Below, piece after piece: positions 18,962-39,220 of a DNA stretch of 64,000 nucleotides. How positions within the stretch are numbered: position 1 is the first letter of the stretch; the number at the start of each line of letters is the position of its first letter. The position numbers were made by a program, and so were the translations under genes. This DNA comes from an uncultured Oscillospiraceae bacterium (GTDB lineage Bacteria > Bacillota > Clostridia > Oscillospirales > Ruminococcaceae), in the NCBI GenBank assembly GCA_964370765.1, contig CAYJKW010000004.1, positions 2,995 to 66,994 on the forward strand, in the 5' to 3' direction. The notes under the pieces are model-generated. The model was not told the origin of the DNA. It saw only the letters and a program-made list of their open reading frames with translations, and did not search any database.

Positions 18962-20401
18962 TTATAATGAATTTAACTTATCGGTTAAAAGCTCGGTAAA
19001 AATTTTAGGGTTACCTTTTCCTTTACTAAGCTTCATACACTGTCCAACAAAAAATCCCAGTGCATTTGTTTTGCCGTTTTTATAATCCTCAACGACCTTC
19101 TCGTTATTCTGTATTACCGTTGTAACAATTTCTGCAAGTGCATCACTATCGTTAATCTGAATTAAGTTTTTATCCTTTGCAACCTGTTGTGGATCTGCAT
19201 CCTGTTCTAACAAAACCTCCAGTACAGTTTTGCCGGCGGTATTGCTTATTGAGCCGTTTTCTATAAGCTGAACCATCTCTTTTAACCTTTGTGGTTTTAA
19301 AGCAGTTTCCTCAATAGATTTTCTCGTTTTTGCAAGGTAGGCAGCAATGTCCCCTATTATCCAGTTGCAGATTGATTTTGCAGACTTTGTGTCTTCCTGT
19401 ACTGCACTTTCAAAAAATTCGGCACGTGTACGATTTTCGGCAAGCAGAACAGCATCAGCAACCGGCAATCGATAATTCTGCATATACCTTTTTGCTTTTG
19501 CCACCGGAAGTTCCGGCATAAGTGATTTCATCTCCTCTATAGTATCTAAGGATACCGTAAATCCAAGCAGATCGGGCTCTGGAAAATAGCGATAATCGTG
19601 TGCATCCTCTTTACTTCTTAACAGTACACTTTCACCCTTTTGGTCATCCCAGCGCCTTGTCTGTTGTTCGATTATCTCACCGGCATCAAGCATCTTTGTC
19701 TGCCTTTTCACCTCGTATAGTATGCCACGATACACAGCCCCAAAGCTATTTACGTTTTTCATTTCACATCGTGTGCCAAATTCCTTTGCACCCACAGGTC
19801 TAAGCGAAACATTTACGTCACAACGTACATTACCTTCCTGCATCTTAGCATCACTAATGCCTATGTAAAGCAGTATGGCGTGTATAGTTTCAAGATAGGC
19901 TTTAGCCTCCTCTGCACTGCGCATATCCGGCTCAGATACAATCTCGATAAGTGGAACCCCACATCGATTATAATCAGCAAGTGTTCCCTCTATCCCATCA
20001 ACACGGACTATCTTACCCGCATCTTCTTCGATATGTATTCGGGTGATACCTATGGTTTTGGTCTGCTCGCCTACTAAAATATCCAGCTTTCCATGCTCAC
20101 ACAACGGGACATCAAATTGCGAAATTTGGTATCCTTTAGGCAAATCCGGGTAAAAATAGTTTTTCCTATCCTGCTTTGATACCCTGTTTATACTACATCC
20201 AAGTGCAATACCCATCTTAACGCAGTAATCCACAACCGAGCTATTAAGAGTTGGCAAAGTTCCCGGCATTCCTGTGCATATGGGGCAGGTCAATGTATTA
20301 ACCTCACGTCCGAATTCATTTTTGCATCCACAGTAAATTTTTGTATTTGTATTCAGCTCAGCATGAACCTCAAGGCCTATGACAGTTTCGTATTTTGACA
20401 T
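18962..20401 (-). CDS. gatB: Asp/Glu-tRNA(Asn/Gln) amidotransferase subunit B (copy 1)
   Basis: IGLEVHAEL, QDRKNYFYPDLPKGYQISQ and GITRIHIEEDAGK motifs, with a C-terminal YqeY-like tail. The start overlaps the gatA stop by 1 nt. Confidence 0.95.
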   Translation of the reverse strand: MSKYETVIGLEVHAELNTNTKIYCGCKNEFGREVNTLTCPICTGMPGTLPTLNSSVVDYCVKMGIALGCSINRVSKQDRKNYFYPDLPKGYQISQFDVPLCEHGKLDILVGEQTKTIGITRIHIEEDAGKIVRVDGIEGTLADYNRCGVPLIEIVSEPDMRSAEEAKAYLETIHAILLYIGISDAKMQEGNVRCDVNVSLRPVGAKEFGTRCEMKNVNSFGAVYRGILYEVKRQTKMLDAGEIIEQQTRRWDDQKGESVLLRSKEDAHDYRYFPEPDLLGFTVSLDTIEEMKSLMPELPVAKAKRYMQNYRLPVADAVLLAENRTRAEFFESAVQEDTKSAKSICNWIIGDIAAYLAKTRKSIEETALKPQRLKEMVQLIENGSISNTAGKTVLEVLLEQDADPQQVAKDKNLIQINDSDALAEIVTTVIQNNEKVVEDYKNGKTNALGFFVGQCMKLSKGKGNPKIFTELLTDKLNSL

Positions 20402-21852
20402 TATTTCACCTCCGGGGCTGCAAACCCACCAACCAACTTCTCGTACTGTGCACCAACCGAAAGCAGTGAATAATCATCAGAATGTCGTCCTATCAGTTGT
20501 AAGCCTATCGGCAATCCATCCTTTGAAAGTCCGGCTGGTAATGCAAGCGCCGGTAATCCAGCAAGATTAACCGTTACTGTACAGCTATCACCTGCATACA
20601 TCTTTATCGGATCGGTGTTTCGTTCACCTATCTTGAAGGCTGGGGAGGGCGCAATAGGCGTAAGCAACATATCACACTGTGATAAAACCGAGTCAAACTC
20701 TGCCGCAAATCGACGTTGTAAAAGCTTAGCTCTTTTGTAATAAGCATCGTAGTATCCACTTGATAGCACATATGTACCTAATAAAATACGCCGTTTAACC
20801 TCATCACCAAATCCTTCGGTTCTTGTTTTTTTGTACAGTTCATCAAGGTTATCGGTTTCTACACGCATTCCATATTTTACACCATCGTAACGAGCAAGGT
20901 TTGAAGATGCCTCAGCCGATGATATTATATAATAGGCAGACAACGAATAGCCGGTGCTCGGTATCGAAACATCCTTAATTATTGCACCTGCTTTCTCCAT
21001 TTCCTTAGCTGCAGCAAGCACTTTTTCTTTAGTTTCATCCTCGATTCCGTCAGAAAAATATTCCTTTGGTAGCCCTACTACTGTTCCTTTAAGCGATCTT
21101 TCATGCTTTACTAATTCTTTATCAATCGATGTTGCATCCATCCTATCGTGTCCGTGGATTACATCAAACACCGCCTTAACATCATCTACCGAACGACCAA
21201 GTGGCCCGATCTGATCTAAAGAGGAGGCGAAGGCAACCAGCCCATACCTTGACACCGTACCGTAAGACGGCTTAAACCCTACAACACCACAAAGTCCGGC
21301 CGGTTGGCGAATAGATCCGCCGGTATCCGATCCAAGTGTAACCATCCCTTCACAGGCGGCGATCGCCGCTGCACTACCGCCGGAAGATCCACCCGGTACA
21401 CAGGCAGTGTTAAAGGGATTACGAGTAGTTTTAAAATACGAATTCTCACAAGATGAACCCATAGCAAACTCATCCATATTAAGTTTGCCAAGCAATATAC
21501 CTCCAGCCTTTTCCATTCGATCAAAGGCGGTTGCATTGTATGGTGGCACAAAATTTTCAAGCATCCTTGATGCACAGCTTGTAGCTATCCCCTTTGTACA
21601 GATATTATCTTTAACAGCGTATGGGATTCCATCAAGCGGGCCAATGGTTTCGCCTTTTTTACGGCGCTCATCTGACTTTTTTGCATCCTGCATAGCTTTC
21701 TCGGCCGTTACGGTAATATATGCAGCTACCTTATCCTCAACATCATCAATTCGATCAAGACAGGCCTGTGTAAGTTCAGCGGAGGTAACCTCACCTGTTC
21801 TAAGTAGCGACCCTGCCTTTTTTGCGGTTAATTCATATAGTTTATTCATCAT
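20401..21852 (-). CDS. gatA: Glutamyl-tRNA(Gln)/aspartyl-tRNA(Asn) amidotransferase subunit A (copy 1)
   Basis: Amidase signature [12 protein letters not shown]...[12 protein letters not shown]. Confidence 0.95.
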   Translation of the reverse strand: MMNKLYELTAKKAGSLLRTGEVTSAELTQACLDRIDDVEDKVAAYITVTAEKAMQDAKKSDERRKKGETIGPLDGIPYAVKDNICTKGIATSCASRMLENFVPPYNATAFDRMEKAGGILLGKLNMDEFAMGSSCENSYFKTTRNPFNTACVPGGSSGGSAAAIAACEGMVTLGSDTGGSIRQPAGLCGVVGFKPSYGTVSRYGLVAFASSLDQIGPLGRSVDDVKAVFDVIHGHDRMDATSIDKELVKHERSLKGTVVGLPKEYFSDGIEDETKEKVLAAAKEMEKAGAIIKDVSIPSTGYSLSAYYIISSAEASSNLARYDGVKYGMRVETDNLDELYKKTRTEGFGDEVKRRILLGTYVLSSGYYDAYYKRAKLLQRRFAAEFDSVLSQCDMLLTPIAPSPAFKIGERNTDPIKMYAGDSCTVTVNLAGLPALALPAGLSKDGLPIGLQLIGRHSDDYSLLSVGAQYEKLVGGFAAPEVK

Positions 21853-21858
21853 CGCCCC

Positions 21859-22131
21859 CTAATTCTTTAATGTGGGTAACAATATACACCCTGCTTCGGT
21901 TTTAGGGACTACCGATAAAAACTCATCTCTGGTAAGTGATGCAGTAATTACATCTTCACGTAGTGTCATCTGACCAATCCCATCAATGGGATCCGATATG
22001 TCTGCTATATCGGGCAGATGCTCCACCATGCTTAATATATCATTCATCTGCGCCATAAAACGTTCCTCTTGCTGTGGCGCAAGTTCCAGCTGTGAGAGTT
22101 CACACAGCCTTTTAAAGTCCTTTTTTTCCAT
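21859..22131 (-). CDS. gatC: Amidotransferase subunit C (copy 1, divergent)
   Basis: 90 aa, in the canonical position upstream of gatA. It shows a GatC-like pattern (...LSQLELAPQQEE...M..ILS.V..L). The start overlaps the ligA stop by 1 nt (TAATG). Confidence 0.8.
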   Translation of the reverse strand: MEKKDFKRLCELSQLELAPQQEERFMAQMNDILSMVEHLPDIADISDPIDGIGQMTLREDVITASLTRDEFLSVVPKTEAGCILLPTLKN

Positions 22132-24101
22132 TAGTTCCCCTCAATCATTAATAGTAGTTCGTCCATCGATATTACCCTAACACCTGCATCGACGGCTTTT
22201 TTAAGTTTGCTACCTGCATCCTCACCGCAAAGCAGAAAGTCTGTCTTTTTTGAAACGCTTGCGGTAACCTTACCGCCATGTTTTTGTATAATCACCTTAG
22301 CTTCATCTCTGCTGTAGCCCGGTATTGTCCCTGTAACAACAAAGCTCCTGCCCTCTAAATAGGCTGAAACAGTACCACTTTGGTAGTTAGTGTTAACTCC
22401 ATAGCTCTTTAAGCTTGCTACTGTATTCATGGCCTGCTGTGTTAAAAAATAGTTGCACATACTTTGAGCTATAATAGGGCCGATACCATCTATCTCACAA
22501 ACCGCTTGCACCTCTGCAATAGCTATGGCATCAAGGGTCTTAAAGTGTTCACAGATAAGGGTAGCGGCACGTGCGCCGACATTCTTTATTCCAAAAGCAA
22601 ATACTAGCCTGTCAAGATTTTGTTTTTTTGATTCCGATATTGCATTAATCAAGTTTTCTGCCGAACGTTGAGCAAAGCCCTCAAGCTCTAAAAGCTGATC
22701 TGTTGTTAATGCATATATGTCCTCAACATTTTTTACAAGTCCAGCTAATACAAGTTGATGTGCAACGGCATCTCCAAGCCCCTCAATGTCCATCGCAGAA
22801 CGTGATGCATAGTGTATTATTCCGCGTAGTCGTTGTTCAGGGCAGTTAGGATTAACACAGCGCAGTGCAACCTCCTCCCCATTATCAACAAGGTCAGCTT
22901 TACAGGACGGGCACTCGCTTGGAAACTCATAGGGTATACTACTATCATCATGAGCGATCACCCTCACAATCTCCGGAATAATATCGCCCGCCTTTCGAAC
23001 TAAAACGGTGTCCCCTATTCGTATGTCCTTATCTGCGATAAAGTCACGATTATGCAGTGCCGCCCTTGCTACAGTTGTGCCGGCAAGTATTACCGGTTCT
23101 AAATCTGCAGTAGGGATAATTGCACCGGTTCTACCAACCGATATGGAAACTCCGATAAGCTTAGTGATTTTTTCTTCCGGTGGGTATTTAAATGCTGCGG
23201 CCCAACGTGGAAACTTAGATGTGCTACCAAGCAAAGGACGAAGCTCAATATTATCAAGCTTTACAACGGCACCATCAATATCAAAATCAAAATCCTTGCG
23301 CTGCTTGGCAATATTATCAATCACCTCTATGGCCTTATCAATATTATCCACATGTTTCGAACACGGCGGTGTAATAAACCCCATCTCGGCAAGTATACTT
23401 ATAGTCTCCTCATGGGAGCTTGAGGTTATGTCTCCCTGCTGTAGATTGAATATAATCAACTCCAGATTACGCTCTGCGGTAACCCTGCTATCCTTTTGAC
23501 GTAAAGAACCAGCCGCCGCATTACGCGGGTTCTTAAAGGGTTGCTCACCTGCCTGCTCCTGTTCAAGGGCAATTCTATTAAACACATCGCGAGGCATGTA
23601 AACTTCGCCTCTTACAGTAATATTAATCGGTTTTGGCAATGTTTTTGGCACCGATTTTATGGTTAAAATATTGGCAGTTACATCCTCACCTATCTCACCG
23701 TTCCCTCTTGTTACGCCTTTTAATAGGATACCATTTTCATAGACAAGTGATACCGAAAGTCCATCTATCTTAGGCTCTACAACATAGCTTGGAGAATCAA
23801 CCTTTTGCCTTATTCTGCTATCAAAATCCCGTAACGAATCAAACGAAAAAACATCCTGTAGGCTTTCCATCTTTACTGCATGGGCAACCTTTTCAAACTG
23901 TTCGTCCGCAACGCCCCCCACCCTATTTGTTGGGGAGTTTTCATCGTTATATTCAGGGTATTGTGTTTCTATGTTGCGCAGTTCTGTCATAAGTGCGTCA
24001 TACTCATAATCGTCTATTGATGAATTATTAAGCTGATAATACTCATGATTATGAATTCTTATTTTGCTGCGCAGTATATCAATTTTTTTCTTAATGTCCA
24101 A
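22131..24101 (-). CDS. ligA: NAD-dependent DNA ligase
   Basis: Adenylation motif VEPKIDGLS, Zn finger CPSCKADLV...CVNPNCP, HhH repeats and a C-terminal BRCT domain. 656 aa. Confidence 0.97.
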   Translation of the reverse strand: MDIKKKIDILRSKIRIHNHEYYQLNNSSIDDYEYDALMTELRNIETQYPEYNDENSPTNRVGGVADEQFEKVAHAVKMESLQDVFSFDSLRDFDSRIRQKVDSPSYVVEPKIDGLSVSLVYENGILLKGVTRGNGEIGEDVTANILTIKSVPKTLPKPINITVRGEVYMPRDVFNRIALEQEQAGEQPFKNPRNAAAGSLRQKDSRVTAERNLELIIFNLQQGDITSSSHEETISILAEMGFITPPCSKHVDNIDKAIEVIDNIAKQRKDFDFDIDGAVVKLDNIELRPLLGSTSKFPRWAAAFKYPPEEKITKLIGVSISVGRTGAIIPTADLEPVILAGTTVARAALHNRDFIADKDIRIGDTVLVRKAGDIIPEIVRVIAHDDSSIPYEFPSECPSCKADLVDNGEEVALRCVNPNCPEQRLRGIIHYASRSAMDIEGLGDAVAHQLVLAGLVKNVEDIYALTTDQLLELEGFAQRSAENLINAISESKKQNLDRLVFAFGIKNVGARAATLICEHFKTLDAIAIAEVQAVCEIDGIGPIIAQSMCNYFLTQQAMNTVASLKSYGVNTNYQSGTVSAYLEGRSFVVTGTIPGYSRDEAKVIIQKHGGKVTASVSKKTDFLLCGEDAGSKLKKAVDAGVRVISMDELLLMIEGN

Positions 24102-30153: not shown

Positions 30154-31875
30154 TTATTTATTGTTTTCTTTATCTCTTAATCTCATGTAATCCTCTTTTT
30201 CCTGTGGTTTAAAGCCCGCAGAAAGACTACTTCCGTAAACAGTGTAGGTGTTTTTGCCTATACTTTTCGAGTGGTACATAGCAAGATCTGCTGCATTAAA
30301 TAGTGTTTCAAAATCCTTACCATCTTTTGGTGATACCGATATACCTATGCTACTTGATATCTCAATATCCACCCCGTTTTCGGCATGATACACCTTATTA
30401 ATCTCATCGCAAATTCTCATAGCCATCTTCGCAATTGAGGCCTCCGACATTGCATTTGTTAAAAACACTACAAATTCATCTCCGCCAACGCGCCCGACAA
30501 TATCATCCGATCTAAAGATAGTTAATACCTTTGCATAAACTTCACACAGAACATCATCACCTGCTGAGTGCCCCATGTTATCATTAATTCCCTTAAAGTT
30601 ATCAAGGTCAAACATGTATAGCGCACCACCGTTGCCCTTGCTAATATAGTCGTCTACCTTTGATGCAAAGGTACCCTTATTAAATGCACCTGTAAGCGGG
30701 TCGGTCTCGGCAACCTGTTTTAACCTTAGGGATTCCTTCTTTTCGATATCGATTTCATCTATTGTGCAAACAGAGATAATATCGTTCGTATCCTCCTCAC
30801 GGTGAGTATTTATCTGCATCCTATACCATAGATATTCATCTGCTACCGTAGTGACTCCGGTTTGTGATGCCGATGCCTTTATAGATTTTGAGCGATACTC
30901 TATTACACTTTCATTGATTCCTTTTTCGAAATTATCTATCAACGATTGTGAGCTTAACGTTTTAATATTCTTAATATCATCCGGATGCGTATACTCTTTT
31001 GACTGCGTTTCCAGAAATTCTGAAAATGTTGGAAGATGTTCGGTTGGTCTTTCTGTTGAACCTATTAACAATCTCGTAAGTATATCTTTTGTGCAGTTAA
31101 CCTCTATAATGATTAACGCAAGATTAAATACAGCCGAGGTTAGAACCCTATCCTTATCTATCTTATCCTCTAAAACCTTTGTTTTTTCTCGGTACAAACC
31201 CAAGTTAAAAACTGCAATTAGCATTAATAACATTATATAGAAGAAAAGTAGCATGAAGGCAACAATTACAATCTCCTGTACCGAAAGTATTAATGAATAA
31301 TAATCCACACGGAATATATAGGAGTTAAATATGATATACAGGACTAAAAGCAATGTAAGGGATAAAAGACCTCTATAAAAAGACTTGCTTTCCATTATCT
31401 TCTTTACAGTGCTCATTGGAATTAGAAGAATAAATAGTAGTAATGCGATTATCTGTATCGCAAAGGAACCTAAATTTATATAAGATACATATTCGGCGCT
31501 ATAGTTTATGTCGTGCATAGATATTTTGTAAGCTATTGAGACTGATGGGATAAGAATAGATCGAATCACAAACAGATGTAACAGCGACCCTATTCCAACA
31601 CCGAATATTCCGGTTACTCTACCCTTAAAAAGCAAAAACAACTCAAAGATCAAAAGCCCTACACATGCAAAATAGGGAGTTGCGGTGCTGCTGTGCACCG
31701 ACGATAAAAAAATCGGTGATATTAATCCATTGACTATACAGACAATGAAAATTGAAGCCCTGTGAAACCTAGTGCCATCGCTTAATATATCACACAGTTT
31801 AAAGTTTAAAAAGGAGTGAACCGATATAATTATAAATGCAATAACATAATATGATATGTCAACATTATTAAGCAT
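30154..31875 (-). CDS. Membrane-anchored diguanylate cyclase (GGDEF with intact I-site)
   Basis: About 230 aa of TM helices are followed by a cytoplasmic linker and a GGDEF domain: RSDDIVGRVGGDEFVV (RxxD five residues before GGDEF). The start was set at the ATG at 31875, with an AAGGAG RBS. Confidence 0.9.
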   Translation of the reverse strand: MLNNVDISYYVIAFIIISVHSFLNFKLCDILSDGTRFHRASIFIVCIVNGLISPIFLSSVHSSTATPYFACVGLLIFELFLLFKGRVTGIFGVGIGSLLHLFVIRSILIPSVSIAYKISMHDINYSAEYVSYINLGSFAIQIIALLLFILLIPMSTVKKIMESKSFYRGLLSLTLLLVLYIIFNSYIFRVDYYSLILSVQEIVIVAFMLLFFYIMLLMLIAVFNLGLYREKTKVLEDKIDKDRVLTSAVFNLALIIIEVNCTKDILTRLLIGSTERPTEHLPTFSEFLETQSKEYTHPDDIKNIKTLSSQSLIDNFEKGINESVIEYRSKSIKASASQTGVTTVADEYLWYRMQINTHREEDTNDIISVCTIDEIDIEKKESLRLKQVAETDPLTGAFNKGTFASKVDDYISKGNGGALYMFDLDNFKGINDNMGHSAGDDVLCEVYAKVLTIFRSDDIVGRVGGDEFVVFLTNAMSEASIAKMAMRICDEINKVYHAENGVDIEISSSIGISVSPKDGKDFETLFNAADLAMYHSKSIGKNTYTVYGSSLSAGFKPQEKEDYMRLRDKENNK

Positions 31876-31896
31876 ATAAAGCACTCCTTTCGTGAG

Positions 31897-33324
31897 TTAG
31901 TTTTCCAATAGTTTTGTTATAATCTCGTTAACAACAATAGGGTTTCCTTTTCCAGAGGTCTTGGCCATAACCTGCCCAACTATTGCCTTAAAGGCATTTG
32001 TTTTACCACTTTTATAGTCCGTTACAAGCTTTTCTGATTTTTCCAATACCTCTTTAACATAGGTTGTCAAGATATCCTTATCACTTATCTGTGCCATATC
32101 ATTATCATCTACGTATTCTTTAACGCTACAGCTACCCTTTTCCCATAAGTCTTTAATTAGTCTTTTTCCTACACTGCTATTAACATACCCGGTACCGATA
32201 AGTTCAGCAATTTCACCTATAACATCCTCATCAATATTCGGAGATACATCCTCCCCCTCTACCATCTTTAAAACATCACCTATCATAAGGTTTGCTAATA
32301 TCTTGGTATGGGACGTTTTTTTAGCAGCTGATTCAAAGTAGTTTGCAATATTCATATCATTTGTTAATAGTTCGGCATCATAAGATGTTAATCCGTAACT
32401 CTTAACATATATTTCCTTACGTGCATCAGGCAACATTGGTATTGTAGCACCAATCTCGTCGATTTTTTGTTTTGTGCTCACTATCGGTAGTAAGTCTGGA
32501 TCCGGAAAGTAGCGATAATCGTTTGCATCTTCCTTTTTTCTCATCGAGAAGGTTTTACCGTTAGACTGGTCAAAACGTCGTGTTTCCTGTACTACCTGCT
32601 CACCTTTTTCTACAAGTTCTATCTGCCTTTTATATTCATAGTCAATTGCCTTTAATATAAACTGGAATGAGTTAAGGTTCTTCATCTCGGTACGGGTTCC
32701 AAACTGCTCAGCACCTTTTTTTCTTATCGAAAGATTAACGTCACAGCGAAGTGAACCTTCGTTCATCCTACAGTCGGAAATATCGGTATAAAGTAGAATA
32801 GCACGTAGCTTTTTAAAGTAGGCTACAGCTTCATCTGCACTGCGAATATCCGGCTCTGAAACAATTTCAATAAGTGGCACACCACAGCGGTTGCAGTCTA
32901 TCATTGTACCCTGTTTTTCGTCATGTACCAGTTTACCTGCATCCTCCTCTATATGGATACGGGTTATACCTATGGCTTTTGTGCCTTTATCTGTCTCTAT
33001 CTCCAGCTTACCTTCGTAGCATAACGGCAGATCATACTGTGATATCTGATATGCCTTAGGCAGATCGGGATAAAAGTAGTTTTTTCTATCCTGTTTTGAA
33101 AAGCTGCCAATCTTACAACCTGTTGCAAGGCCGGCCTTTATCGCATAATTAACAACCTGCTCGTTTAAAACCGGTAATGTTCCGGGCATACCCAAACAAA
33201 CAGGGCAAACCTGTGTATTTGGCTCGGCTCCAAATTTTGTAGGGCAACTACAGAAAATTTTTGTTTCGGTGCTAAGCTCACAATGAACCTCAAGGCCTAT
33301 AACCATCTCATAATCTTTAATCAT
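31897..33324 (-). CDS. gatB: Amidotransferase subunit B (copy 2)
   Basis: It carries the same GatB motifs as copy 1 (IGLEVHCEL, QDRKNYFYPDLPKAYQISQ, GITRIHIEEDAGK). By eye it is only roughly 55-60 percent identical to copy 1. Confidence 0.95.
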   Translation of the reverse strand: MIKDYEMVIGLEVHCELSTETKIFCSCPTKFGAEPNTQVCPVCLGMPGTLPVLNEQVVNYAIKAGLATGCKIGSFSKQDRKNYFYPDLPKAYQISQYDLPLCYEGKLEIETDKGTKAIGITRIHIEEDAGKLVHDEKQGTMIDCNRCGVPLIEIVSEPDIRSADEAVAYFKKLRAILLYTDISDCRMNEGSLRCDVNLSIRKKGAEQFGTRTEMKNLNSFQFILKAIDYEYKRQIELVEKGEQVVQETRRFDQSNGKTFSMRKKEDANDYRYFPDPDLLPIVSTKQKIDEIGATIPMLPDARKEIYVKSYGLTSYDAELLTNDMNIANYFESAAKKTSHTKILANLMIGDVLKMVEGEDVSPNIDEDVIGEIAELIGTGYVNSSVGKRLIKDLWEKGSCSVKEYVDDNDMAQISDKDILTTYVKEVLEKSEKLVTDYKSGKTNAFKAIVGQVMAKTSGKGNPIVVNEIITKLLEN

Positions 33325-34796
33325 TATTTAATGCCTCCCTGCACCTTATTAACATGATATATGTCTGTCTCCTGCTCATATGCATTTCCAACCCTATACA
33401 ATGTTGATTCACTGAATGCATCGCCAATAAGTTGCATGCCAAGCGGTAGGCCATCTTTATTCTCACCACAAGGTATTGCGATGGACGGTAAGCCTGCAAT
33501 GTTTACCGGCACTGTGCATATATCGCCCATATACATCTCAAGTGGAGTTTCGGTTTTCTCCCCCAGTTTATAGGATGCTGTCGGTGCAACCGGTGAAAGT
33601 ATGCACTGATAGTCACCAAATACCTTTGCAAAATCATTCATCAGCAAAGTTCTAACCTGCAAGGCTTTCTTGTAATAGGCATCATAGTAGCCGGAACTTA
33701 AGGCAAACGATCCTAACATAATACGCCTTTTAACCTCTTTGCCAAAGCCCTCGCTACGTGATTTTTTGTAAAGCTCCTCTATATCTGCAAAATCATCGGC
33801 GCGATAGCCATAACGTATTCCATCAAATCGTGCAAGGTTTGATGATGCTTCGGCACTGGAAATTACATAATAGGCAGGAAGCGCCAGCTCCAGCGATGGA
33901 ATCGAAACCTCCGTTATGCTTGCGCCAAGTTTTTCATAAACCTTAGCGGCGTTAAGCACGGCAGTGCGCACCTCGTCCGAAATACCCTCGCCGAAATACT
34001 CCTTTGGAAGTGCAATTTTCAAGCCTTTTACTCCAGCGCTAAGCTCGGCTGTAAAATCACCATATTCTCTATTAACAGAGGTGCTATCTTTTTCATCGTA
34101 TCCGGTTATCGCATTTAATACCACAGCATTATCTGCAACGCTCTTTGTTACGGGTCCAATCTGATCAAGGGAGGAGGCAAATGCAATAAGCCCATTTCTA
34201 GATACTGTACCGTAGGTGGGTTTCATTCCTACAACACCGCAAAAGGATGCCGGTTGTCTAATAGAACCGCCGGTATCGGATCCAAGGGTAAACACAGCCT
34301 CATCTGCTGCAACTGCGGCAGCTGAACCACCTGAGCTTCCCCCTGGGACATAATCGGTGTTCCTAGGATTTTTTGTTACCTTAAAGTACGAGTTCTCGGT
34401 GGTGGATCCCATCGCAAACTCGTCCATATTTAGCTTTCCGAGCATCACAATATCCTCGGAATTAAGTCTATCCATTACATGGGCATCATAGGGTGGAATA
34501 AAGTTTTCCAGCATCTTAGATGCACAGCTTGTTCTAACATCCTTTGTACAGATATTATCTTTAATACCACAAGGAATTCCGGCAAGCGAGGGTAGTGTTT
34601 CCCCTGCAGCCCTTTTAGTATCAATCTCTTTTGCCTTACTTATTGCATGATCATATGTGTTGGTTATATAGGCACCAATCACACCATCGTTGGAATTGAT
34701 ATTATTAATGTATGCCTCGGTCAGCTCCTGTGAGGAGATTTCTTTATTCGCTAATTTGCTTTGAAGTTCAATTAGTGTTAATTTAGTTAATTCCAT
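33324..34796 (-). CDS. gatA: Amidotransferase subunit A (copy 2)
   Basis: Amidase signature [12 protein letters not shown]...[12 protein letters not shown]. It has its own RBS (AGGGGTGAG). Its stop overlaps the gatB2 start by 1 nt. Confidence 0.95.
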
Positions 34797-34806
34797 CTAC
34801 TCACCC

Positions 34807-36885
34807 CTACTCTATAACCTTAGGCACAGTAATATAGCCATCAAACTTAGTTGCGGCATTATTTAAAAGTGCTTCTCTATTCTCTTTATTGGTAACAACA
34901 TCTGCCCTGAAAACATTTTCCATCGGGATAACATGCGCTGTAGTATCTACTCCGTCGGTATTGGCTCCGCTTAATTGATTTGCAAAATCAATAATAGCCT
35001 CCATCTCGGGTCCCATTGTCACCTTCTCCTCGGCAGTTAGGGTAAGTCTGGCAAGGTGCGCCACATTCTCAACATCTATATGTTGCTGTGCCTTTTTTTG
35101 CTTTGCTGATATTTCGGCTGCAAGCTCACCGCCTAAAGACAGCTCTAATATTTCAAGTTGTTCGGCATCTACCAAGTTAGGAGCCTCGGTCATCAAGCAG
35201 GATGCATCCTTAACCTTAGGAAATGCAATAACATCTCTAAGTGATTGTGCGCCTACCATTAGCATAACTAAACGATCAAGACCAAAGGCAAATCCTCCGT
35301 GCGGTGGTGTTCCGTAACTAAAAGCATTTACCATGAATCCGAAACGATCTTCTATCTCGGCCTCGTTAAATCCAAGGGCTAAAAACATCTGTTGCTGAAC
35401 ATCCTTATTATAGATACGGATGCTACCGCTACCTAATTCTATACCGTTTAATACAATATCGTAGGCCTGAGCCCTTACTCTACCGGGATCGGAAAACAGG
35501 TACTGTACATCCTCCTCATACGGCATTGTGAAGGGATGATGCATTGCAATAAATCTGTCATCTTCTTCAGAGTATTCGAACTGTGGAAAGTCAGTTACGA
35601 ACAACATCTTAAAGTCATCTTTTTTTCTTAAGCCAAATATGTCTGCTATATCTATACGAAGATTTCCAAGTGTTCTGCGAACCACATTTAATTTATCAGC
35701 ACAAAATAGTATGAAGTCGCCAGGCTTTGCATCCATAGCCTTTAGTATTGCATCCACATCATCCTTCGAGAGGAATTTAGTCAACAATGAGTAAACCTCA
35801 CCGTCAGGACGTATTGCTATCCAGGCCATTCCTTTTGCGCCGTAGGATATAGCTTTTTCGGTAAGTGCTTCAACATCACTACGGTTGTAGTCAGGCCAAT
35901 TCTTAACATTGATACCTCTAACAACGCCACCTGATTTTGTAACATTTTTAAATACGGTAAACTCACATTTTTTTGCGATCTCTGTCAGATCTACTATCGG
36001 TAGATCAAACCTTAAGTCCGGCTTATCACTACCGTATCTGTCCATTGCATCTATCCAGCTTATACGTTGAAATGGTTCTGCAAAGTCAATATTCATAGCC
36101 CCTTTGAAGATATATTTAAACATATTTTCAAGATGGCAAAGTATATCCTCCTGCTCAATAAAGGACATTTCCATATCAACCTGTGTAAACTCCGGTTGGC
36201 GATCTGCCCTTAAATCCTCATCCCTAAAACAACGAGCAACCTGATAGTATTTATCTATTCCACCAACCATAAGAAGCTGTTTGAATATCTGTGGGGATTG
36301 AGGAAGTGCATAGAATGTACCCTTATGAACCCTACTTGGCACAAGGTAATCCCTTGCACCTTCCGGTGTGCTTTTGGTTAGCATGGGGGTTTCTACGGCA
36401 ATAAAGCCATCGTTATCAAGATAGTCCTGTGTAAGTTTTTGAACCTTATGCCTAAACTTTAGATTGTTGTATATTTCCTGCCTACGGATATCTAAGAATC
36501 TATATTTTAATCTTAAATCTTCCCTAACGTTATCCTCATCAAGAGAAAACGGTAGTGTTTGCGCCTGAGATAAAACCTTAATCTCCTCGGCAAACAGCTC
36601 TACTGTGCCAGTAGAAATCTTAGCGTTTACCGTATCATCCGCTCTTAGTTGTACGATGCCTTTAAGCTGTACAACAGATTGGTTTTTTAAACCTTCCACC
36701 TGCAAGAATGCATCACTCTGCATATTTTCGGCATTACAAACCACCTGAAGTGTACCTTCTCTATCCTTTAAGTCGATAAAGATAACACCACCCATGTCCC
36801 GTTTTGTCTGTACCCAACCGGCTACAATTATCTGGGATCCGATATGTTTTTCTCTGATTTCTCCGCAATAAGCAGTTCTTAACAT
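34807..36885 (-). CDS. aspS: Aspartate--tRNA ligase fused in frame to a C-terminal GatC domain
   Basis: Residues 1 to about 585 are a bacterial-type AspRS (motif 2 FRDEDLRADRQPEFTQVD, motif 3 GGFAFGLDRLVMLM, ...AFPKVKDAS). After a linker, the last 90 aa (34810-35079) read IDVENVAHLARLTLTAEEK...DGYITVPKVIE, the full-length GatC pattern. Confidence 0.93.
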   Translation of the reverse strand: MLRTAYCGEIREKHIGSQIIVAGWVQTKRDMGGVIFIDLKDREGTLQVVCNAENMQSDAFLQVEGLKNQSVVQLKGIVQLRADDTVNAKISTGTVELFAEEIKVLSQAQTLPFSLDEDNVREDLRLKYRFLDIRRQEIYNNLKFRHKVQKLTQDYLDNDGFIAVETPMLTKSTPEGARDYLVPSRVHKGTFYALPQSPQIFKQLLMVGGIDKYYQVARCFRDEDLRADRQPEFTQVDMEMSFIEQEDILCHLENMFKYIFKGAMNIDFAEPFQRISWIDAMDRYGSDKPDLRFDLPIVDLTEIAKKCEFTVFKNVTKSGGVVRGINVKNWPDYNRSDVEALTEKAISYGAKGMAWIAIRPDGEVYSLLTKFLSKDDVDAILKAMDAKPGDFILFCADKLNVVRRTLGNLRIDIADIFGLRKKDDFKMLFVTDFPQFEYSEEDDRFIAMHHPFTMPYEEDVQYLFSDPGRVRAQAYDIVLNGIELGSGSIRIYNKDVQQQMFLALGFNEAEIEDRFGFMVNAFSYGTPPHGGFAFGLDRLVMLMVGAQSLRDVIAFPKVKDASCLMTEAPNLVDAEQLEILELSLGGELAAEISAKQKKAQQHIDVENVAHLARLTLTAEEKVTMGPEMEAIIDFANQLSGANTDGVDTTAHVIPMENVFRADVVTNKENREALLNNAATKFDGYITVPKVIE

Positions 36886-36912
36886 TGATTATTCTTCCTT
36901 TCGCCTCTATGC

Positions 36913-36950
36913 AAAAAAAGACCTACGTCCCAAAATATGGGACGAAAGTC
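36913..36950 (-). terminator. Leader terminator (attenuator) upstream of aspS-gatC
   Basis: The minus strand reads GACUUUCGUCCCA-UAUU-UUGGGACGUAGGUC followed by U7. It lies 28 nt upstream of the aspS ATG. Confidence 0.7.
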
Positions 36951-37067
36951 CTGTCATTCCTTCTGGGTGCCGCCCAATAAAGCATATTAATATAACCTAC
37001 AGGTTAGCCGAACAGACATAAACAGCCTTGTAATTATAGGCAAATTCACCATGTCGTCTTTACAGTA
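36951..37067 (-). promoter_or_regulatory. 5' leader RNA with degenerate T-box-like motif (candidate tRNA-sensing or other attenuator)
   Basis: The minus strand reads UUGGGCGGCACCCAG (36977-36963), compared with the T-box core GGGUGGUACCGCG. It precedes CUUUCGUCCC, the usual 5' arm of T-box terminators. A small hairpin UAACC-UGUA-GGUUA lies just upstream, and there is a GGUGAA (GNUGNA-like) element. Stem I would be unusually short. Confidence 0.4.
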
Positions 37068-37096
37068 ATTTTACAACAATTTTGTAGTTATGTCAA
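37068..37096 (-). promoter_or_regulatory. Sigma-A-type promoter for the aspS-gatC operon
   Basis: The minus strand carries TTGACA (37096-37091), a 17-nt spacer, then TAAAAT (37073-37068). Confidence 0.6.
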
Positions 37097-37104
37097 TAGT
37101 TAGC

Positions 37105-38109
37105 CTAACAAATAAACTCACCGCAGATATTTTTTTTCATAAACTCTGATAGTTTTTCACCGCTAAACCCAAGTGTATGTGCAACAACAGCCTTGACATA
37201 TGTCATCTCTGCAGTTAACCCATATACCGATATTGCATTTAATGCATTAGCGCTCTCGTATAAAGGTTTGCCCTCTCTTCTTGGTGTTAATATTACATCC
37301 ACACCGATATTATCACATTGTTTTAAAAATTCAGTGGTAGAGAATGAAGGTTCTGACAACTGTGTGCATGCTGTCTGTGAATGGTAGAGACAGTGAACAA
37401 CAATCTTTACATCATTATTTAGCCTCACTGACGAATAATCTAATCCGACATAAGGTTTAAGCATTATCACACCATTCTTTAGTGTTGGCAGTATATCAAG
37501 GTCAATCGGACTTTTATCAATTTTGTGATTTGGTAAACTATTTCCACAGGTAATATCAGCCATATCATTGCTAAAAAAATCGTCTGTATAGGTATTACAC
37601 TGCTTTAGATGTGCGGCAAGGTGCAGATATATATTATCATCCGAATTTTTGTAAACCACATATGTTCCCGGAGTTATACCGTCACAAACTAGCTCGACCG
37701 ATCGTCTAAAATTAATATTGCCGTTTGCATCATTTGTATCTAGTGGAAGGTTGCTGGACACCAAAAAAACAGGAACATTAACCCCTGAGAGGGCAAGTGA
37801 TAAAAAGCACGCTGTATAAGCAAGTGTATCGGTACCATGTGCGACGATAACACCCTTGTAGTCATCAATGTTAATTTCTTTTAATTTTCTTAATAGCTTG
37901 CTCCAACACTCTATAGTCATATTTTCACTAAGAACCTCCATCACCACCTCTGTCTCAAACTGTTGCTGTGCATGATGCGAGTTTGAGGTTGCAAAATTCT
38001 GAACTAACAGTGTTTTAGCCTTGTTCATATTAACGGATCTATTTAAATTATCAACATCACCGCTTGAACATATAGTCCCACCGGTTAGTAATAAAAGTAT
38101 CTTTTTCAT
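37105..38109 (-). CDS. L-asparaginase/glutaminase family protein (type I-like, divergent C-terminal domain)
   Basis: MKKILLLLTGGTICS (nucleophile Thr motif) and VAHGTDTLAYT (Thr-Asp of the second triad). The start was set at the ATG at 38109 with an AAGGAGAG RBS. Confidence 0.8.
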   Translation of the reverse strand: MKKILLLLTGGTICSSGDVDNLNRSVNMNKAKTLLVQNFATSNSHHAQQQFETEVVMEVLSENMTIECWSKLLRKLKEINIDDYKGVIVAHGTDTLAYTACFLSLALSGVNVPVFLVSSNLPLDTNDANGNINFRRSVELVCDGITPGTYVVYKNSDDNIYLHLAAHLKQCNTYTDDFFSNDMADITCGNSLPNHKIDKSPIDLDILPTLKNGVIMLKPYVGLDYSSVRLNNDVKIVVHCLYHSQTACTQLSEPSFSTTEFLKQCDNIGVDVILTPRREGKPLYESANALNAISVYGLTAEMTYVKAVVAHTLGFSGEKLSEFMKKNICGEFIC

Positions 38110-38194
38110 CAACTCTCTCCTTAGTTTTATTGATAGTATTGACAATACTAATATTATACTATACTATGAAATTAATTATTTATGCAGGAATATT

Positions 38195-39220
38195 ATGAGT
38201 AGTTATGTTTTCTCAAAGGCAAATAGGTTTGAAGATTGCCCTCCGCTTGTGATAGAGTATCTTTCTACACTTGTTTCGGTAAAGGGTCGATCTAAACGCA
38301 CCGTAAACGCCTATTATATTGACCTACGTCTTTTTTTAAGATATATCGTACAAAGTAGATCCGACAGTTTTAGCGGAGAGATCGATAATAAATGTGATAT
38401 AACCCAACTTGATGAAAATTTTTTCGAGGGAATAAAAAAACTTGAGATCCTACGATTTTTAAACTTTCTCGCCTTTGACCGTGACACTGTAGAGTGTAAA
38501 GGCAATGGCCTTAGCGCAACAGCTCGAGCAAGAAAACTATCGGCAATAAAAGGGCTTTACAAATATCTTGTAATCGAAGCCGGACATATAGACACAAATC
38601 CGGCAAAGGATATTGAAACACCAAAGATAAAAAAAACTCTACCAAAACATCTAACGTTAGATGAGAGCAAGCTATTGCTTACAGCAGAGGAAAAACCAGA
38701 TGCACGAGTTTACTGTATGCTTATGCTGTTACTAAACTGCGGAATCAGATTGTCCGAACTGTGTGGAATCAATGTTACCGACATAAAATCAGATCAGATG
38801 CGGGTAGTTGGAAAAGGAGATAAGGAACGCACTGTATATCTAAACAAAGCTTGCATAGTGGCAATCGATAACTATATTGAAGAACGTAAAAAGATTGAAA
38901 ATATTATTGATGATAATGCATTATTTATAAGCCCTAAAACAAGAAAGCGATTAAGCGGCCGACGCATACAACAGATAATCGAAAACTGCTTTAAGCAGGC
39001 TGGTCTTGAAGGGCAAGGCTATTCTGTCCACAAGCTCCGCCATACCGCAGCAACACTACTTTATCGCTATGGCGGTGCAGACATGCTTGCACTTAAAGAA
39101 ATTTTAGGACATGAAAATATCTCGACAACCGAAATTTATACCCATATATCGGATGAACAGCTAAAAAAAGTCGCTGCATCTTCCCCACTTGCCACTTTCG
39201 CACCGCCAAGCAAAACTTAG
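38195..39220 (+). CDS. Tyrosine site-specific recombinase, XerC/XerD-like
   Basis: Catalytic pattern ...GIRLSEL..., HKLRHTAAT, LGHENISTTEIYTH. The start was set at the ATG at 38195 (MSSYVF) with an AGGAA RBS. Confidence 0.85.
   Translation: MSSYVFSKANRFEDCPPLVIEYLSTLVSVKGRSKRTVNAYYIDLRLFLRYIVQSRSDSFSGEIDNKCDITQLDENFFEGIKKLEILRFLNFLAFDRDTVECKGNGLSATARARKLSAIKGLYKYLVIEAGHIDTNPAKDIETPKIKKTLPKHLTLDESKLLLTAEEKPDARVYCMLMLLLNCGIRLSELCGINVTDIKSDQMRVVGKGDKERTVYLNKACIVAIDNYIEERKKIENIIDDNALFISPKTRKRLSGRRIQQIIENCFKQAGLEGQGYSVHKLRHTAATLLYRYGGADMLALKEILGHENISTTEIYTHISDEQLKKVAASSPLATFAPPSKT

Follow-up and report, generated by a model that had tools for sequence, protein, structure and literature searches.

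The assembly of GatA and GatB requires the GatC subunit. In Clostridium acetobutylicum an aspS gene and a gatCAB set reportedly form one operon, which is said to be controlled by a T-box and to respond to tRNA(Asn). On this transamidation operon PMC4206432 cites Saad et al. (2012 J Biol Chem 287:20382 and 2013 PNAS 110:12756). In Helicobacter pylori the bacterial-type ND-AspRS shows no association with GatCAB in the absence of tRNA, the complex is dynamic, and AspRS is released from the transamidosome following aspartylation (PMC3367201). Bacterial-type Asn-transamidosomes are transient and tRNA-dependent and hence hard to trap and study. Covalent joins involving parts of the amidotransferase machinery have been described in two other settings. 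The GlnRS of Deinococcus radiodurans bears a C-terminal YqeY/GatB-tail domain (PMC1865053), and GatC-GatA fusion mutants of Mycobacterium smegmatis, which were selected in the laboratory, show impaired fidelity and more mistranslation (PMC7541841).

Here we analysed a stretch of 64,000 nucleotides from an uncultured Oscillospiraceae bacterium (hereafter the window), in which one open reading frame encodes AspRS together with GatC, the small subunit of the tRNA amidotransferase, in a single chain (Table 1).

One chain of AspRS and GatC

The initial annotation of this DNA had proposed an in-frame fusion of AspRS with a complete GatC, and the Pfam and NCBIfam profiles agree with it, showing both parts to be complete on one chain of 692 residues. 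The AspRS part contains an OB-fold anticodon-binding domain (PF01336, tRNA_anti-codon; residues 20-105, E 9.3e-16), which aligns with residues 1-105 of 1EFW and 1EQR, the class II core with motifs 2 and 3 (PF00152, tRNA-synt_2; residues 122-558, E 2.8e-120) and a GAD insertion (PF02938; residues 312-406, E 2.7e-18), this last being the domain that tells the bacterial from the archaeal type of AspRS. With the OB domain, the class II core and GAD all present, we assign this part, from its sequence, to the bacterial-type, class IIb enzymes. Its score with the aspartate--tRNA ligase model NF001750 is 816.7 bits over residues 1-583 (cutoff 443) and with TIGR00459 754.9 bits (cutoff 373.85), and the solved bacterial AspRS chains 1EFW and 4WJ3_M match it at 568-586 bits (568 bits for 4WJ3_M). 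The motifs quoted in the initial annotation lie at residues 220-237 (FRDEDLRADRQPEFTQVD), 530-543 (GGFAFGLDRLVMLM) and 554-569 (AFPKVKDASCLMTEAP), and the residues of motifs 2 and 3 are unchanged in 72 fused homologues. Confidence in the AF2 model of this part is mostly between 85 and 97 (pLDDT).

The last 90 residues do score as GatC, as had been claimed: TIGR00135 (gatC) matches over positions 4-93 of its 93 (81.3 bits within the whole chain, 87.1 bits with the tail alone, cutoff 47.1) and PF02686 matches at residues 616-687 with 58-63 bits against a threshold of 23 (E 1e-15 in the fusion and 3.8e-17 with the tail alone). The tail also aligns end to end with the crystallised GatC chains 2DF4_C (8-95 of 100), 4WJ3_C (10-103 of 104) and, likewise, 3H0L_C. 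In the AF2 model it forms two successive helices, a long extended segment and then a helix and strands; the extended segment (residues 644-665) has low confidence in the monomer, which is consistent with a segment that may become ordered only upon binding of a partner. The GatC part is under purifying selection. When the tail (108 aa) was searched with HMMER against representatives at 50% identity, no protein of about 690 aa appeared among the best 150 matches, presumably because the fusions are clustered with AspRS proteins that have other representatives; the nearest free GatCs in these matches were about 45-52% identical to the tail, and some matches resemble C-terminal fragments of fusions. 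Inspection of the raw DNA between 35060 and 35150, across the junction, found no stop codon and no change of frame.

Table 1. Positions in the window of the fusion gene, its leader and the genes considered with it.
Feature	Coordinates	Strand	Basis or remark
aspS::gatC fusion gene	34807..36885	(-)	692 aa + stop, ATG start, single ORF
AspRS moiety, residues 1-583	35137..36885	(-)	NCBIfam and Pfam matches, AF2
Linker GGELAAEISAKQKKAQQH, residues 585-602, 18 aa	35080..35133	(-)	AF2, alignment of 120 homologues
GatC moiety IDVENVAHLARL..., residues 603-692, full length	34810..35079	(-)	TIGR00135, PF02686; from nt 35079 to the stop
gatA2, 490 aa	33324..34796	(-)	Starts 10 nt past the fusion stop
gatB2, 475 aa	31897..33324	(-)	1-nt overlap with gatA2
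Paralogous canonical gatC (21859-22131, 90 aa), gatA (20401-21852) and gatB (18962-20401)	18962..22131	(-)	NCBIfam equivalog matches
ligA	22131-24101	(-)	Upstream of canonical gatC-gatA-gatB
Fusion operon leader	36886..37104	(-)	Promoter-like site, T-box-derived 3' segment, terminator, RBS
Promoter-like TTGACA-17-TAAAAT	37096-37068	(-)	Best such site in the region, 11/12
T-box-derived 3' segment	~37000-36913	(-)	Aligns with 3' third of relatives' T-boxes, Stem I missing
GGGCGGCACC	36975-36966	(-)	In T-box-derived segment
Terminator hairpin and U-run	36950-36920 and 36919-36913	(-)	Terminator-like site in leader
RBS	~36900-36893	(-)	
Asparaginase-like gene, 334 aa	37105..38109	(-)	Directly upstream of fusion operon; PF00710 E 2.4e-32

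Genomic context and distribution of the fusion

The GatC moiety is encoded together with gatA2 and gatB2, which lie immediately downstream. The product of gatA2 scores 653.4 bits with TIGR00132 (gatA, cutoff 481.1; Pfam Amidase E 1.3e-154) and that of gatB2 643.8 bits with NF004014 and 558 bits with TIGR00133, both over the cutoff, with GatB_N and GatB_Yqey domains. The spacing between the fusion and gatA2 given in the initial annotation holds in the ORF positions, and so does its statement that this operon has no free-standing gatC; a free gatC lies in another operon about 13 kb off (ligA-gatC-gatA-gatB, 24101-18962). The two GatA proteins of the window are 55% identical and the two GatB proteins 50%; between the fused GatC and the free GatC of the window BLASTP detected no pairwise similarity.

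The fusion is common in Clostridia. AspRS domains and PF02686 are present together in all of the best 120 homologue clusters (90% identity clusters, at 65-100% identity to the window protein). A scan with two C-terminal peptide patterns recovered at least 80 loci, 25 of them fused and 55 unfused, and in at least 25 species genomes AspRS and its extension form one uninterrupted frame. Among the carriers are the complete genomes CP117982.1 and OY776489.1. All 25 fused loci have gatA directly after the fusion, followed by gatB where the contig continues, and phmmer matched the extension to GatC in 21 of the 25; none of the 55 unfused aspS genes has gatA, gatB or gatC within 6 kb. No free gatC was present in the fusion operons examined, that of the window included. 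Identity to the AspRS part of the window ranges between 58 and 100% for fused enzymes and between 48 and 56% for truly unfused ones, and the nearest neighbours of every fused AspRS sequence are themselves fused. The fused proteins of Epulopiscium, for example, are 71-72% identical to that of the window, compared with about 52% for unfused proteins, mostly from Lachnospiraceae. An AsnB-type gene lies near the fusion locus in one relative.

In 15 relatives Rfam identifies a T-box above the gathering score immediately upstream of the fusion, and its specifier is AAC (Asn) in all 15, which links the fusion to the supply of Asn-tRNA(Asn). The leader of the window has no match to the T-box family (RF00230) or to any other in Rfam at the gathering score, nor at E<=5. 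Its T-box-derived segment has CGGC in place of UGGU. The last 100 nt of the leader are 89% identical to those of the sister genome L089, as against 43% identity at four-fold sites. Because the window operon has no Stem I with an Asn specifier, the regulatory argument rests on the relatives.

As an observation apart, the window genome and this one sister share the replacement of the T-box by a conserved Stem-I-less derivative that stands beside an asparaginase-like gene. The product of this gene falls under all NCBIfam cutoffs (112 against 260 bits for type I asparaginase, 96 against 310 for GatD). The gene holds the same position in the sister genome; it is absent from the other fusion loci, and more distant members of its family are not near gat genes. 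We considered it as a bacterial analogue of GatD that would be a general feature of these operons and rejected this idea, as its adjacency to the operon is confined to the window and a single sister genome and its product scores far below the GatD cutoffs.

A proposed tethered transamidosome and its alternatives

Taking the fused frame, its gene neighbourhood and its relatives together, we think it probable that the gene encodes a bifunctional chain in which a catalytically intact AspRS is tethered to the GatC of the GatA2/GatB2 amidotransferase, that is, a covalently tethered Asn-transamidosome serving as a dedicated accessory module. Such an arrangement is plausible, being consistent with the linkage to gatA and gatB, with the Asn-specific T-boxes of the relatives and with a linker predicted to be disordered; in this model the chain would charge tRNA(Asn), its GatC would assemble with GatA2 and GatB2, and the mischarged tRNA would be channelled. 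To our knowledge all class IIb AspRS dimerise. The AspRS moiety would do so as well, and a flexible tether, some 18 residues long and rich in Lys, would join each intact, bacterial-type AspRS to a C-terminal GatC that belongs to the co-transcribed amidotransferase and wraps the GatA2-GatB2 interface, giving a particle of composition (AspRS-GatC)2(GatA2)2(GatB2)2. In this tethered Asn-transamidosome the AspRS moiety would aspartylate tRNA(Asn), and the tether would keep AspRS at high local concentration near the transamidation site of GatB yet leave it free to dock and undock. Since AspRS would thus be held beside that site, Asp-tRNA(Asn) would be turned into Asn-tRNA(Asn) before it could reach translation. 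The module would be a dedicated accessory path to asparagine and Asn-tRNA, separate from the housekeeping gatCAB 13 kb off, and in most relatives it would be turned on by uncharged tRNA(Asn) via the T-box.

It is rather unlikely, in our view, that the fusion is instead neutral or only a device for stoichiometry or assembly, in which case the loss of the stop codon between aspS and gatC was tolerated, the GatC tail is an ordinary subunit, AspRS acts independently and channelling gains nothing beyond equimolar co-expression. The linker bears on this alternative from both sides. Its confidence in AF2 is low (pLDDT <50 for residues 579-600), which predicts disorder, and its sequence is free to vary: mean pairwise identity among 120 homologues is 21%, compared with 76% and 57% in the parts on either side (57% being that of GatC). 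It is also established that GatA and GatB need GatC for their assembly whatever its attachment, and bacterial transamidosomes already function without a covalent link. However, the linker is tight in length (16-23 aa among the best 120 homologues and 17-20 aa in 106 of them), conserved in polarity and furnished with a cluster of Lys and Arg next to GatC (at least three among its final ten residues in 114 of the 120), its length and Lys cluster thus being conserved whereas its sequence is not. Besides, the fusion has been kept over about 40% divergence of the AspRS domain and is present in one Anaerolineales MAG, and a split aspS-gatC-gatA-gatB operon, either pre-fusion or reverted, was not found among the 80 loci listed by the two peptide patterns.

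We regard as improbable that the AspRS moiety is the housekeeping, discriminating AspRS and that its GatC tail serves the synthesis of Gln-tRNA, with no special link to asparagine. Such a role would fit the fact that the AspRS part scores above the cutoffs of the generic aspartate--tRNA ligase equivalogs, that it scores slightly higher against the discriminating AspRS1 of T. thermophilus than against the ND-AspRS 4WJ3_M, and that the window ORFs scanned include no second aspS. The anticodon-domain loop LRADDTVNAKISTGT resembles that of discriminating enzymes (1EFW, 1EQR) and that of a non-discriminating one (4WJ3_M) to the same degree, and the whole AspRS part is about equally similar to the solved enzymes of both kinds. 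What argues against a housekeeping role is that the T-box specifier of the 15 relatives is that of asparagine rather than GAC (Asp) or CAA/CAG (Gln), that the fused AspRS form a lineage of their own, apart from the unfused enzymes in related families, and that the window has a separate, canonical gatCAB operon. These T-boxes and the strict linkage to gatA and gatB would also speak, if indirectly, for an AspRS of the non-discriminating kind.

Very improbable, too, is that the true product is free GatC, arising by proteolysis of the linker or by internal initiation in this A/G-rich region, with the fused chain a mere precursor. The AAA/AAG runs that encode the Lys-rich linker do resemble an SD-like motif or an A-rich enhancer, and the predicted disorder of the linker would make it accessible to proteases. 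In a comparison of 18 loci, however, the start codons ATG, GTG and TTG have no conserved in-frame position around the beginning of the GatC part (7 loci at most at any position), the Val codons in this region drift between GTT, GTG, GTA and GTC, and there is no consistently placed SD-like motif. As no start codon is conserved, we reject internal initiation of a free GatC and conclude that selection acts on the fused chain as the product; moreover, had free GatC sufficed, selection would not keep the frame open across all lineages. Finally, a sequencing or assembly artefact (missed stop, frameshift or chimeric join), which has in its favour the general possibility in a metagenome-assembled contig and nothing more, can be dismissed because the same fused frame is conserved in other genomes, with identical architecture in independent assemblies of many projects at 58-92% protein identity, in the complete 3.28-Mb Epulopiscium chromosome and in isolates of Ligaoa zhengdingensis.

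The tethered Asn-transamidosome can be extended into a wider reading that we advance tentatively and hold to be doubtful as a whole. The complex would be constitutive and independent of tRNA, and its GatC would have diverged so far from the housekeeping GatC, with which it shares no BLASTP similarity, that neither amidotransferase set assembles with parts of the other, which would insulate on-demand asparagine synthesis from the housekeeping enzyme for Gln and Asn. The tether, through its Lys cluster, may help to bind tRNA. In the sub-lineage of the window, the ancestral tRNA(Asn)-sensing T-box would have been remodelled to a conserved Stem-I-less leader coupled to the asparaginase-like gene; if true, this leader would point to regulation by some signal other than tRNA(Asn) sensed through codon-anticodon pairing.

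Relation to known systems

Several elements of this locus are already on record, namely the partnership of AspRS and GatCAB, the regulation of operons of this type by a T-box, and the joining of AspRS to GatC in one chain. The initial annotation had known of no characterised example, and our literature search indeed found no paper that describes or characterises an AspRS-GatC fusion, but the architecture is common (all of the best 120 clusters and at least 25 species genomes) and catalogued in NCBIfam and UniProt. Taken as a Rosetta-stone fusion for AspRS and GatCAB, as was also put forward, it only predicts once more an interaction that solved transamidosome structures had shown, and it reveals no new interaction and no new kind of system.

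A natural tethered version in the cultured Ligaoa zhengdingensis (WP_249281795.1), whose homologue is named 'Multifunctional fusion protein' in UniProt, would offer a stable complex for structural work and could serve to test how far channelling protects the genetic code by preventing Asp-for-Asn mistranslation. The fusion goes unseen in automated annotation: as RefSeq names the fusion clade plain 'aspartate--tRNA ligase', reconstructions for many gut and rumen Clostridia can be expected to report a second amidotransferase without GatC.

The closest catalogued family is NF009460 / PRK12820 ('bifunctional aspartyl-tRNA synthetase/aspartyl/glutamyl-tRNA amidotransferase subunit C'), which has the same AspRS-linker-GatC order as the window protein. 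Divergent fused relatives align over nearly the whole 723-position model (23-719, for example), but the window protein scores 620.7 bits, below the cutoff of 1379, and none of five divergent relatives reaches it either (240-642 bits), the model representing a different, narrower lineage than the fusion clade of the window. The operon of C. acetobutylicum is reported to place a dedicated AspRS and one of two amidotransferase sets under a tRNA(Asn) T-box, and the relatives of the window follow the same logic with their AAC specifiers; in the window, GatC is fused and the T-box lacks Stem I.

The D. radiodurans GlnRS (PMC1865053) resembles the window protein in that a synthetase carries at its C-terminus a domain related by descent to tRNA-dependent amidotransferases, but that domain is a tRNA-binding GatB-tail paralogue that acts in the direct pathway and not a subunit recruiting a whole amidotransferase. 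The M. smegmatis mutants resemble it in that a lost stop codon left GatC covalently attached to a second polypeptide of the same pathway. Their lesion is at the C-terminal end of GatC, whereas in the window the N-terminus of GatC is tethered and its C-terminus free, an arrangement that selection has conserved; the impaired fidelity of those mutants indicates that covalent attachment of GatC is not automatically benign, although it concerns the other end of the subunit.

The P. aeruginosa complex of ND-AspRS, GatCAB and tRNA(Asn) (4WJ3/4WJ4) and that of H. pylori (PMC3367201) have the same three enzymatic components as the window, whose AspRS is of the bacterial type with GAD (568 bits to 4WJ3_M) and whose tail aligns over the whole GatC of 4WJ3_C. 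In the known Asn-transamidosomes, however, separate chains are held by tRNA, whereas the window protein links AspRS to GatC covalently, and their association should therefore not depend on tRNA. In H. pylori the association of AspRS with GatCAB was not seen without tRNA and is dynamic, and the tether would change exactly that property.

The fused gene, its domains and its tether

The initial annotation had proposed that an aspartyl-tRNA synthetase (AspRS) is naturally fused to a GatC subunit, and profile-HMM searches with the 692-aa protein did indeed place both families above cutoff on one frame. The ORF list and direct translation gave a single unbroken frame, and the raw sequence across the junction (...LSLGGELAAEISAKQKKAQQH followed by IDVENVAHLARL...) contains neither a stop nor a change of frame between the two parts. 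The aspartate--tRNA ligase equivalog of NCBIfam matched residues 1-583 with 816.7 bits (cutoff 443), and the GatC equivalog TIGR00135 matched residues 603-692 with 81.3 bits, or 87.1 when the tail was scored by itself (cutoff 47.1). The match spans positions 4-93 of the 93 in the model, so that the last 90 aa are recognised as GatC over the full span. The tail also aligned end to end with the crystallised GatC chains of S. aureus, P. aeruginosa and A. aeolicus. The sequence details quoted earlier for this gene all proved correct against the ORF list, translation, junction DNA, Pfam and NCBIfam. The gene gatA2 starts 10 nt after the fusion stop and overlaps gatB2 by one base, both being above their NCBIfam equivalog cutoffs. 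Only 12 nt separate gatB2 from a same-strand gene whose 576-aa product is a multi-pass membrane protein ending in a GGDEF diguanylate cyclase domain; this gene was not seen at other loci and may be co-transcribed with the fusion operon.

Positions of the features discussed (L-numbers are loci of relatives in other genomes)
Feature	Position	Strand	Remark
aspS::gatC fusion gene	window 36885-34807	-	
OB anticodon-binding domain	residues 20-105		Pfam
Class II core	residues 122-558		Pfam, E 2.8e-120
Bacterial GAD insertion	residues 312-406		Pfam
GatC domain	residues 616-687		Pfam, E 1e-15
gatA2	window 33324-34796	-	
gatB2	window 31897-33324	-	
GGDEF membrane protein gene	window 30154-31884	-	
Canonical ligA-gatC-gatA-gatB operon	window 18962-24101	-	
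Leader of fusion operon	window 36886-37104	-	219 nt
Sister leader	L089:5512-5728		same leader as window
Asparaginase-family gene	window 37105-38109	-	
XerC/D-like recombinase gene	window ~38021-39220	+	
Second T-box	L010:2870-3103	-	
AsnB-type gene	L007:3904-5742		
PDDEXK_2 gene	L003:8080-9018		
Short gatA call	L089:7808-9340		
ZMP/ZTP riboswitch	L001:11116-11196		
Anaerolineales fusion gene	L052:3-1478		

We compared the tether, the segment from the last AspRS helix to the GatC start, over 120 homologues. It measures 16-23 residues (17-20 in 106 of the 120) and consists largely of Lys (21%), Ala (18%), Ser (10%), Glu (10%) and Gly (9%), with a mean pairwise identity of 21%, against 76% in the adjacent AspRS C-terminus and 57% in GatC. 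Its sequence is thus unconstrained and its layout conserved, the first half being mildly acidic and the last ten residues including a cluster of at least three K/R in 114 homologues. No conserved in-frame start codon or SD-like motif was found at the AspRS/GatC boundary, which argues that the fused chain is the selected product. In the AF2 model (72-sequence alignment, mean pLDDT 78.9) the AspRS body is confident, pLDDT falls below 50 over residues 579-600, and the tail comprises helices at 605-611 and 618-639 (pLDDT ~70-75), an extended low-confidence stretch at 644-665 and then a helix with short strands, a layout as would be expected of a GatC belt that orders only on GatA/GatB.

Distribution and lineage of the fusion

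The fusion is not an artefact, the same architecture being present across homologues and independent assemblies, among them an Epulopiscium chromosome complete at 3.28 Mb and isolates of Ligaoa zhengdingensis, a species in culture. PF02686 and the AspRS domains occur together in all of the best 120 matches in a collection of 5.8 billion proteins (identity 100% down to 65%, length 686-771 aa). Scanning species-representative genomes by tblastn with a 160-aa junction-spanning query, which yields lower bounds, at least 25 loci matched the whole or almost the whole query, spanning Oscillospiraceae, Christensenellales, Clostridiaceae, Mageeibacillus, Ca. Limiplasma, unclassified Clostridia and one Anaerolineales MAG. 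ORF analysis of the 25 listed fused loci gave in every case one frame running from AspRS into a ~100-aa C-terminal extension, directly followed by gatA, with gatB after it in the 21 whose contig reaches far enough. For 21 of these loci, single-sequence phmmer matched the extension to the GatC tail of the window; in L029-L032 it is covered by the tblastn match alone. The Anaerolineales gene, incomplete at the contig end, is an AspRS-GatC fusion outside Bacillota. Its spacer is longer, at about 45 aa, and gatA and gatB come next after the gene, which reflects either horizontal transfer or independent fusion.

The conserved entity is the three-gene unit aspS::gatC, gatA, gatB, the flanking genes varying between genomes. 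The other 55 listed loci comprise 54 genuinely unfused aspS genes and one fused gene cut by a contig end (L083), and none has a gatA, gatB or gatC within 6 kb; among the loci listed, linkage of the fused aspS to gat genes is therefore exclusive. Fused proteins have AspRS moieties that share 58-100% identity with the window's, against 48-56% for genuinely unfused ones, and among the loci compared the nearest neighbours of each fused AspRS are fused, without exception. Epulopiscium fused proteins are 71-72% identical to the window's whereas unfused AspRS, mostly from Lachnospiraceae, have a median of 52%, so that the fused AspRS forms a lineage of its own and is not simply the housekeeping enzyme of each family.

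Single loci present further peculiarities. In Ca. Epulopiscium viviparus (CP117982.1, L003) a PDDEXK_2 (transposase-like nuclease) gene lies between the fusion gene and gatA. In the sister genome (L089) gatA is called at just 295 aa after a 645-nt gap behind the fusion gene, which may come from a frameshift or an assembly error or mean that gatA is decaying. The ZMP/ZTP riboswitch just downstream of the L001 operon precedes a formate-tetrahydrofolate ligase gene, an expected pairing unrelated to the fusion.

Leaders of the fusion operon

At 15 loci the fusion gene is immediately preceded by a T-box leader above the Rfam gathering score, those of the relatives at 83% and 80% identity scoring 128 and 131 bits. 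The specifier is AAC, an Asn codon, in all 15 (usual context GAAGAACA), which predicts that uncharged tRNA(Asn) induces the operon in most of the family. This predicted control is the best available evidence for an AspRS moiety serving Asn-tRNA(Asn) synthesis. Sequence comparison does not decide the specificity of the enzyme, whose similarity to solved AspRS is about the same for discriminating as for non-discriminating ones and whose anticodon-domain loop is likewise uninformative. No T-box was detected upstream in Ca. Epulopiscium viviparus. In one relative (L010) the opposite strand bears a further strong T-box (124 bits), which lies ~1 kb upstream of the operon's own.

Rfam found no T-box in the window itself. 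Its leader opens with the region's best promoter-like site (TTGACA-17-TAAAAT, 11/12 matches), which lies 10 nt beyond the stop codon of an asparaginase-like gene, and ends in a predicted terminator formed by a strong hairpin and U7. Alignment with relatives indicates that the ancestral Asn T-box has been cut down to its 3' third, Stem I and the specifier being gone and the tRNA-acceptor-binding sequence GGGUGGUACC having become GGGCGGCACC; the terminator is intact and the promoter is new. Relatives at 85% and 80% identity keep the canonical T-box sequence, and the latter (L093) also retains a GAAGAACA specifier context. The sister genome, whose fusion protein is 92% identical, has the gene order and leader in common with the window. 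Four-fold degenerate sites have reached saturation between the two (43% identical in the fusion gene and 41% in the asparaginase-like gene), yet the leader retains 79% identity overall, 84% in the promoter and 89% in its final 100 nt, a pattern that argues for a Stem-I-less T-box derivative under purifying selection.

The divergent asparaginase-family gene directly upstream matches PF00710 only, carries TGGT and HGTDT motifs and reaches neither the type I asparaginase cutoff nor that of GatD; remoter members of its family lie away from gat genes. A XerC/D-like tyrosine recombinase gene adjoins it. This arrangement is common to the window and the sister genome only, and may mark the rearrangement that removed Stem I.

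The second gat operon, a proposed tethered transamidosome and known systems

With genes for ComEC, AlaRS, HolA, LigA, MutS2, YqfD, PhoH, a class V aminotransferase and MnmA, the window is ordinary chromosome of a spore-forming Bacillota organism, whose closest sequenced relatives among the matches listed are uncultured Eubacteriales MAGs. A canonical gat operon lies 13 kb from the fusion operon. Pairwise BLASTP within the window detected no similarity between its free GatC and the fused one, and gave only 55% identity between its GatA and GatA2 and 50% between its GatB and GatB2. The two sets are old paralogues, and these values suggest that the two amidotransferases would assemble orthogonally. 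Neither asnS, a second aspS nor an asparagine synthetase is present among the scanned ORFs of the 64-kb window. In a relative with 83% identity (L007) an AsnB-type glutamine-dependent asparagine synthetase gene lies ~2 kb upstream of the T-box-controlled fusion operon, so that at least some carriers may own both asparagine routes.

We infer that the fusion quite probably yields a tethered Asn-transamidosome, the most likely mechanism. An AspRS dimer would bear two GatC tails, each nucleating a GatA2/GatB2 pair, and the flexible tether would hold AspRS beside the amidotransferase with undocking still possible, favouring the hand-over of Asp-tRNA(Asn) and securing a 1:1 supply of GatC. The main rival holds the fusion to be a mere convenience of assembly and stoichiometry without kinetic effect; the constrained linker length and the retention of the fusion over deep divergence both argue mildly against it. 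The fusion would be of moderate interest as a tethered transamidosome that occurs naturally in a host open to cultivation, and no surprise to a specialist.

The initial annotation knew of no characterised example. The novelty of the architecture falls in part, since it is common and already catalogued: the NCBIfam model NF009460 (PRK12820), named 'bifunctional aspartyl-tRNA synthetase/aspartyl/glutamyl-tRNA amidotransferase subunit C', describes the same architecture and UniProt names the Ligaoa protein 'Multifunctional fusion protein', RefSeq calling window-type fusions plainly 'aspartate--tRNA ligase'. What stands is that no description or characterisation of an AspRS-GatC fusion was found in full-text literature searches, several subscription papers being outside reach. 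Alignment along NF009460 gives the window protein and five divergent relatives 240-642 bits, below its cutoff of 1379; they share its architecture but represent a different lineage. Among characterised systems the closest is the aspS-gatCAB operon of C. acetobutylicum, reportedly under T-box control and cited in PMC4206432. In protein stoichiometry the particle proposed here would equal the P. aeruginosa Asn-transamidosome (4WJ3). In H. pylori, with separate chains, association requires tRNA and AspRS departs after aspartylation (PMC3367201), whereas in the window AspRS and GatC are tethered on one chain.
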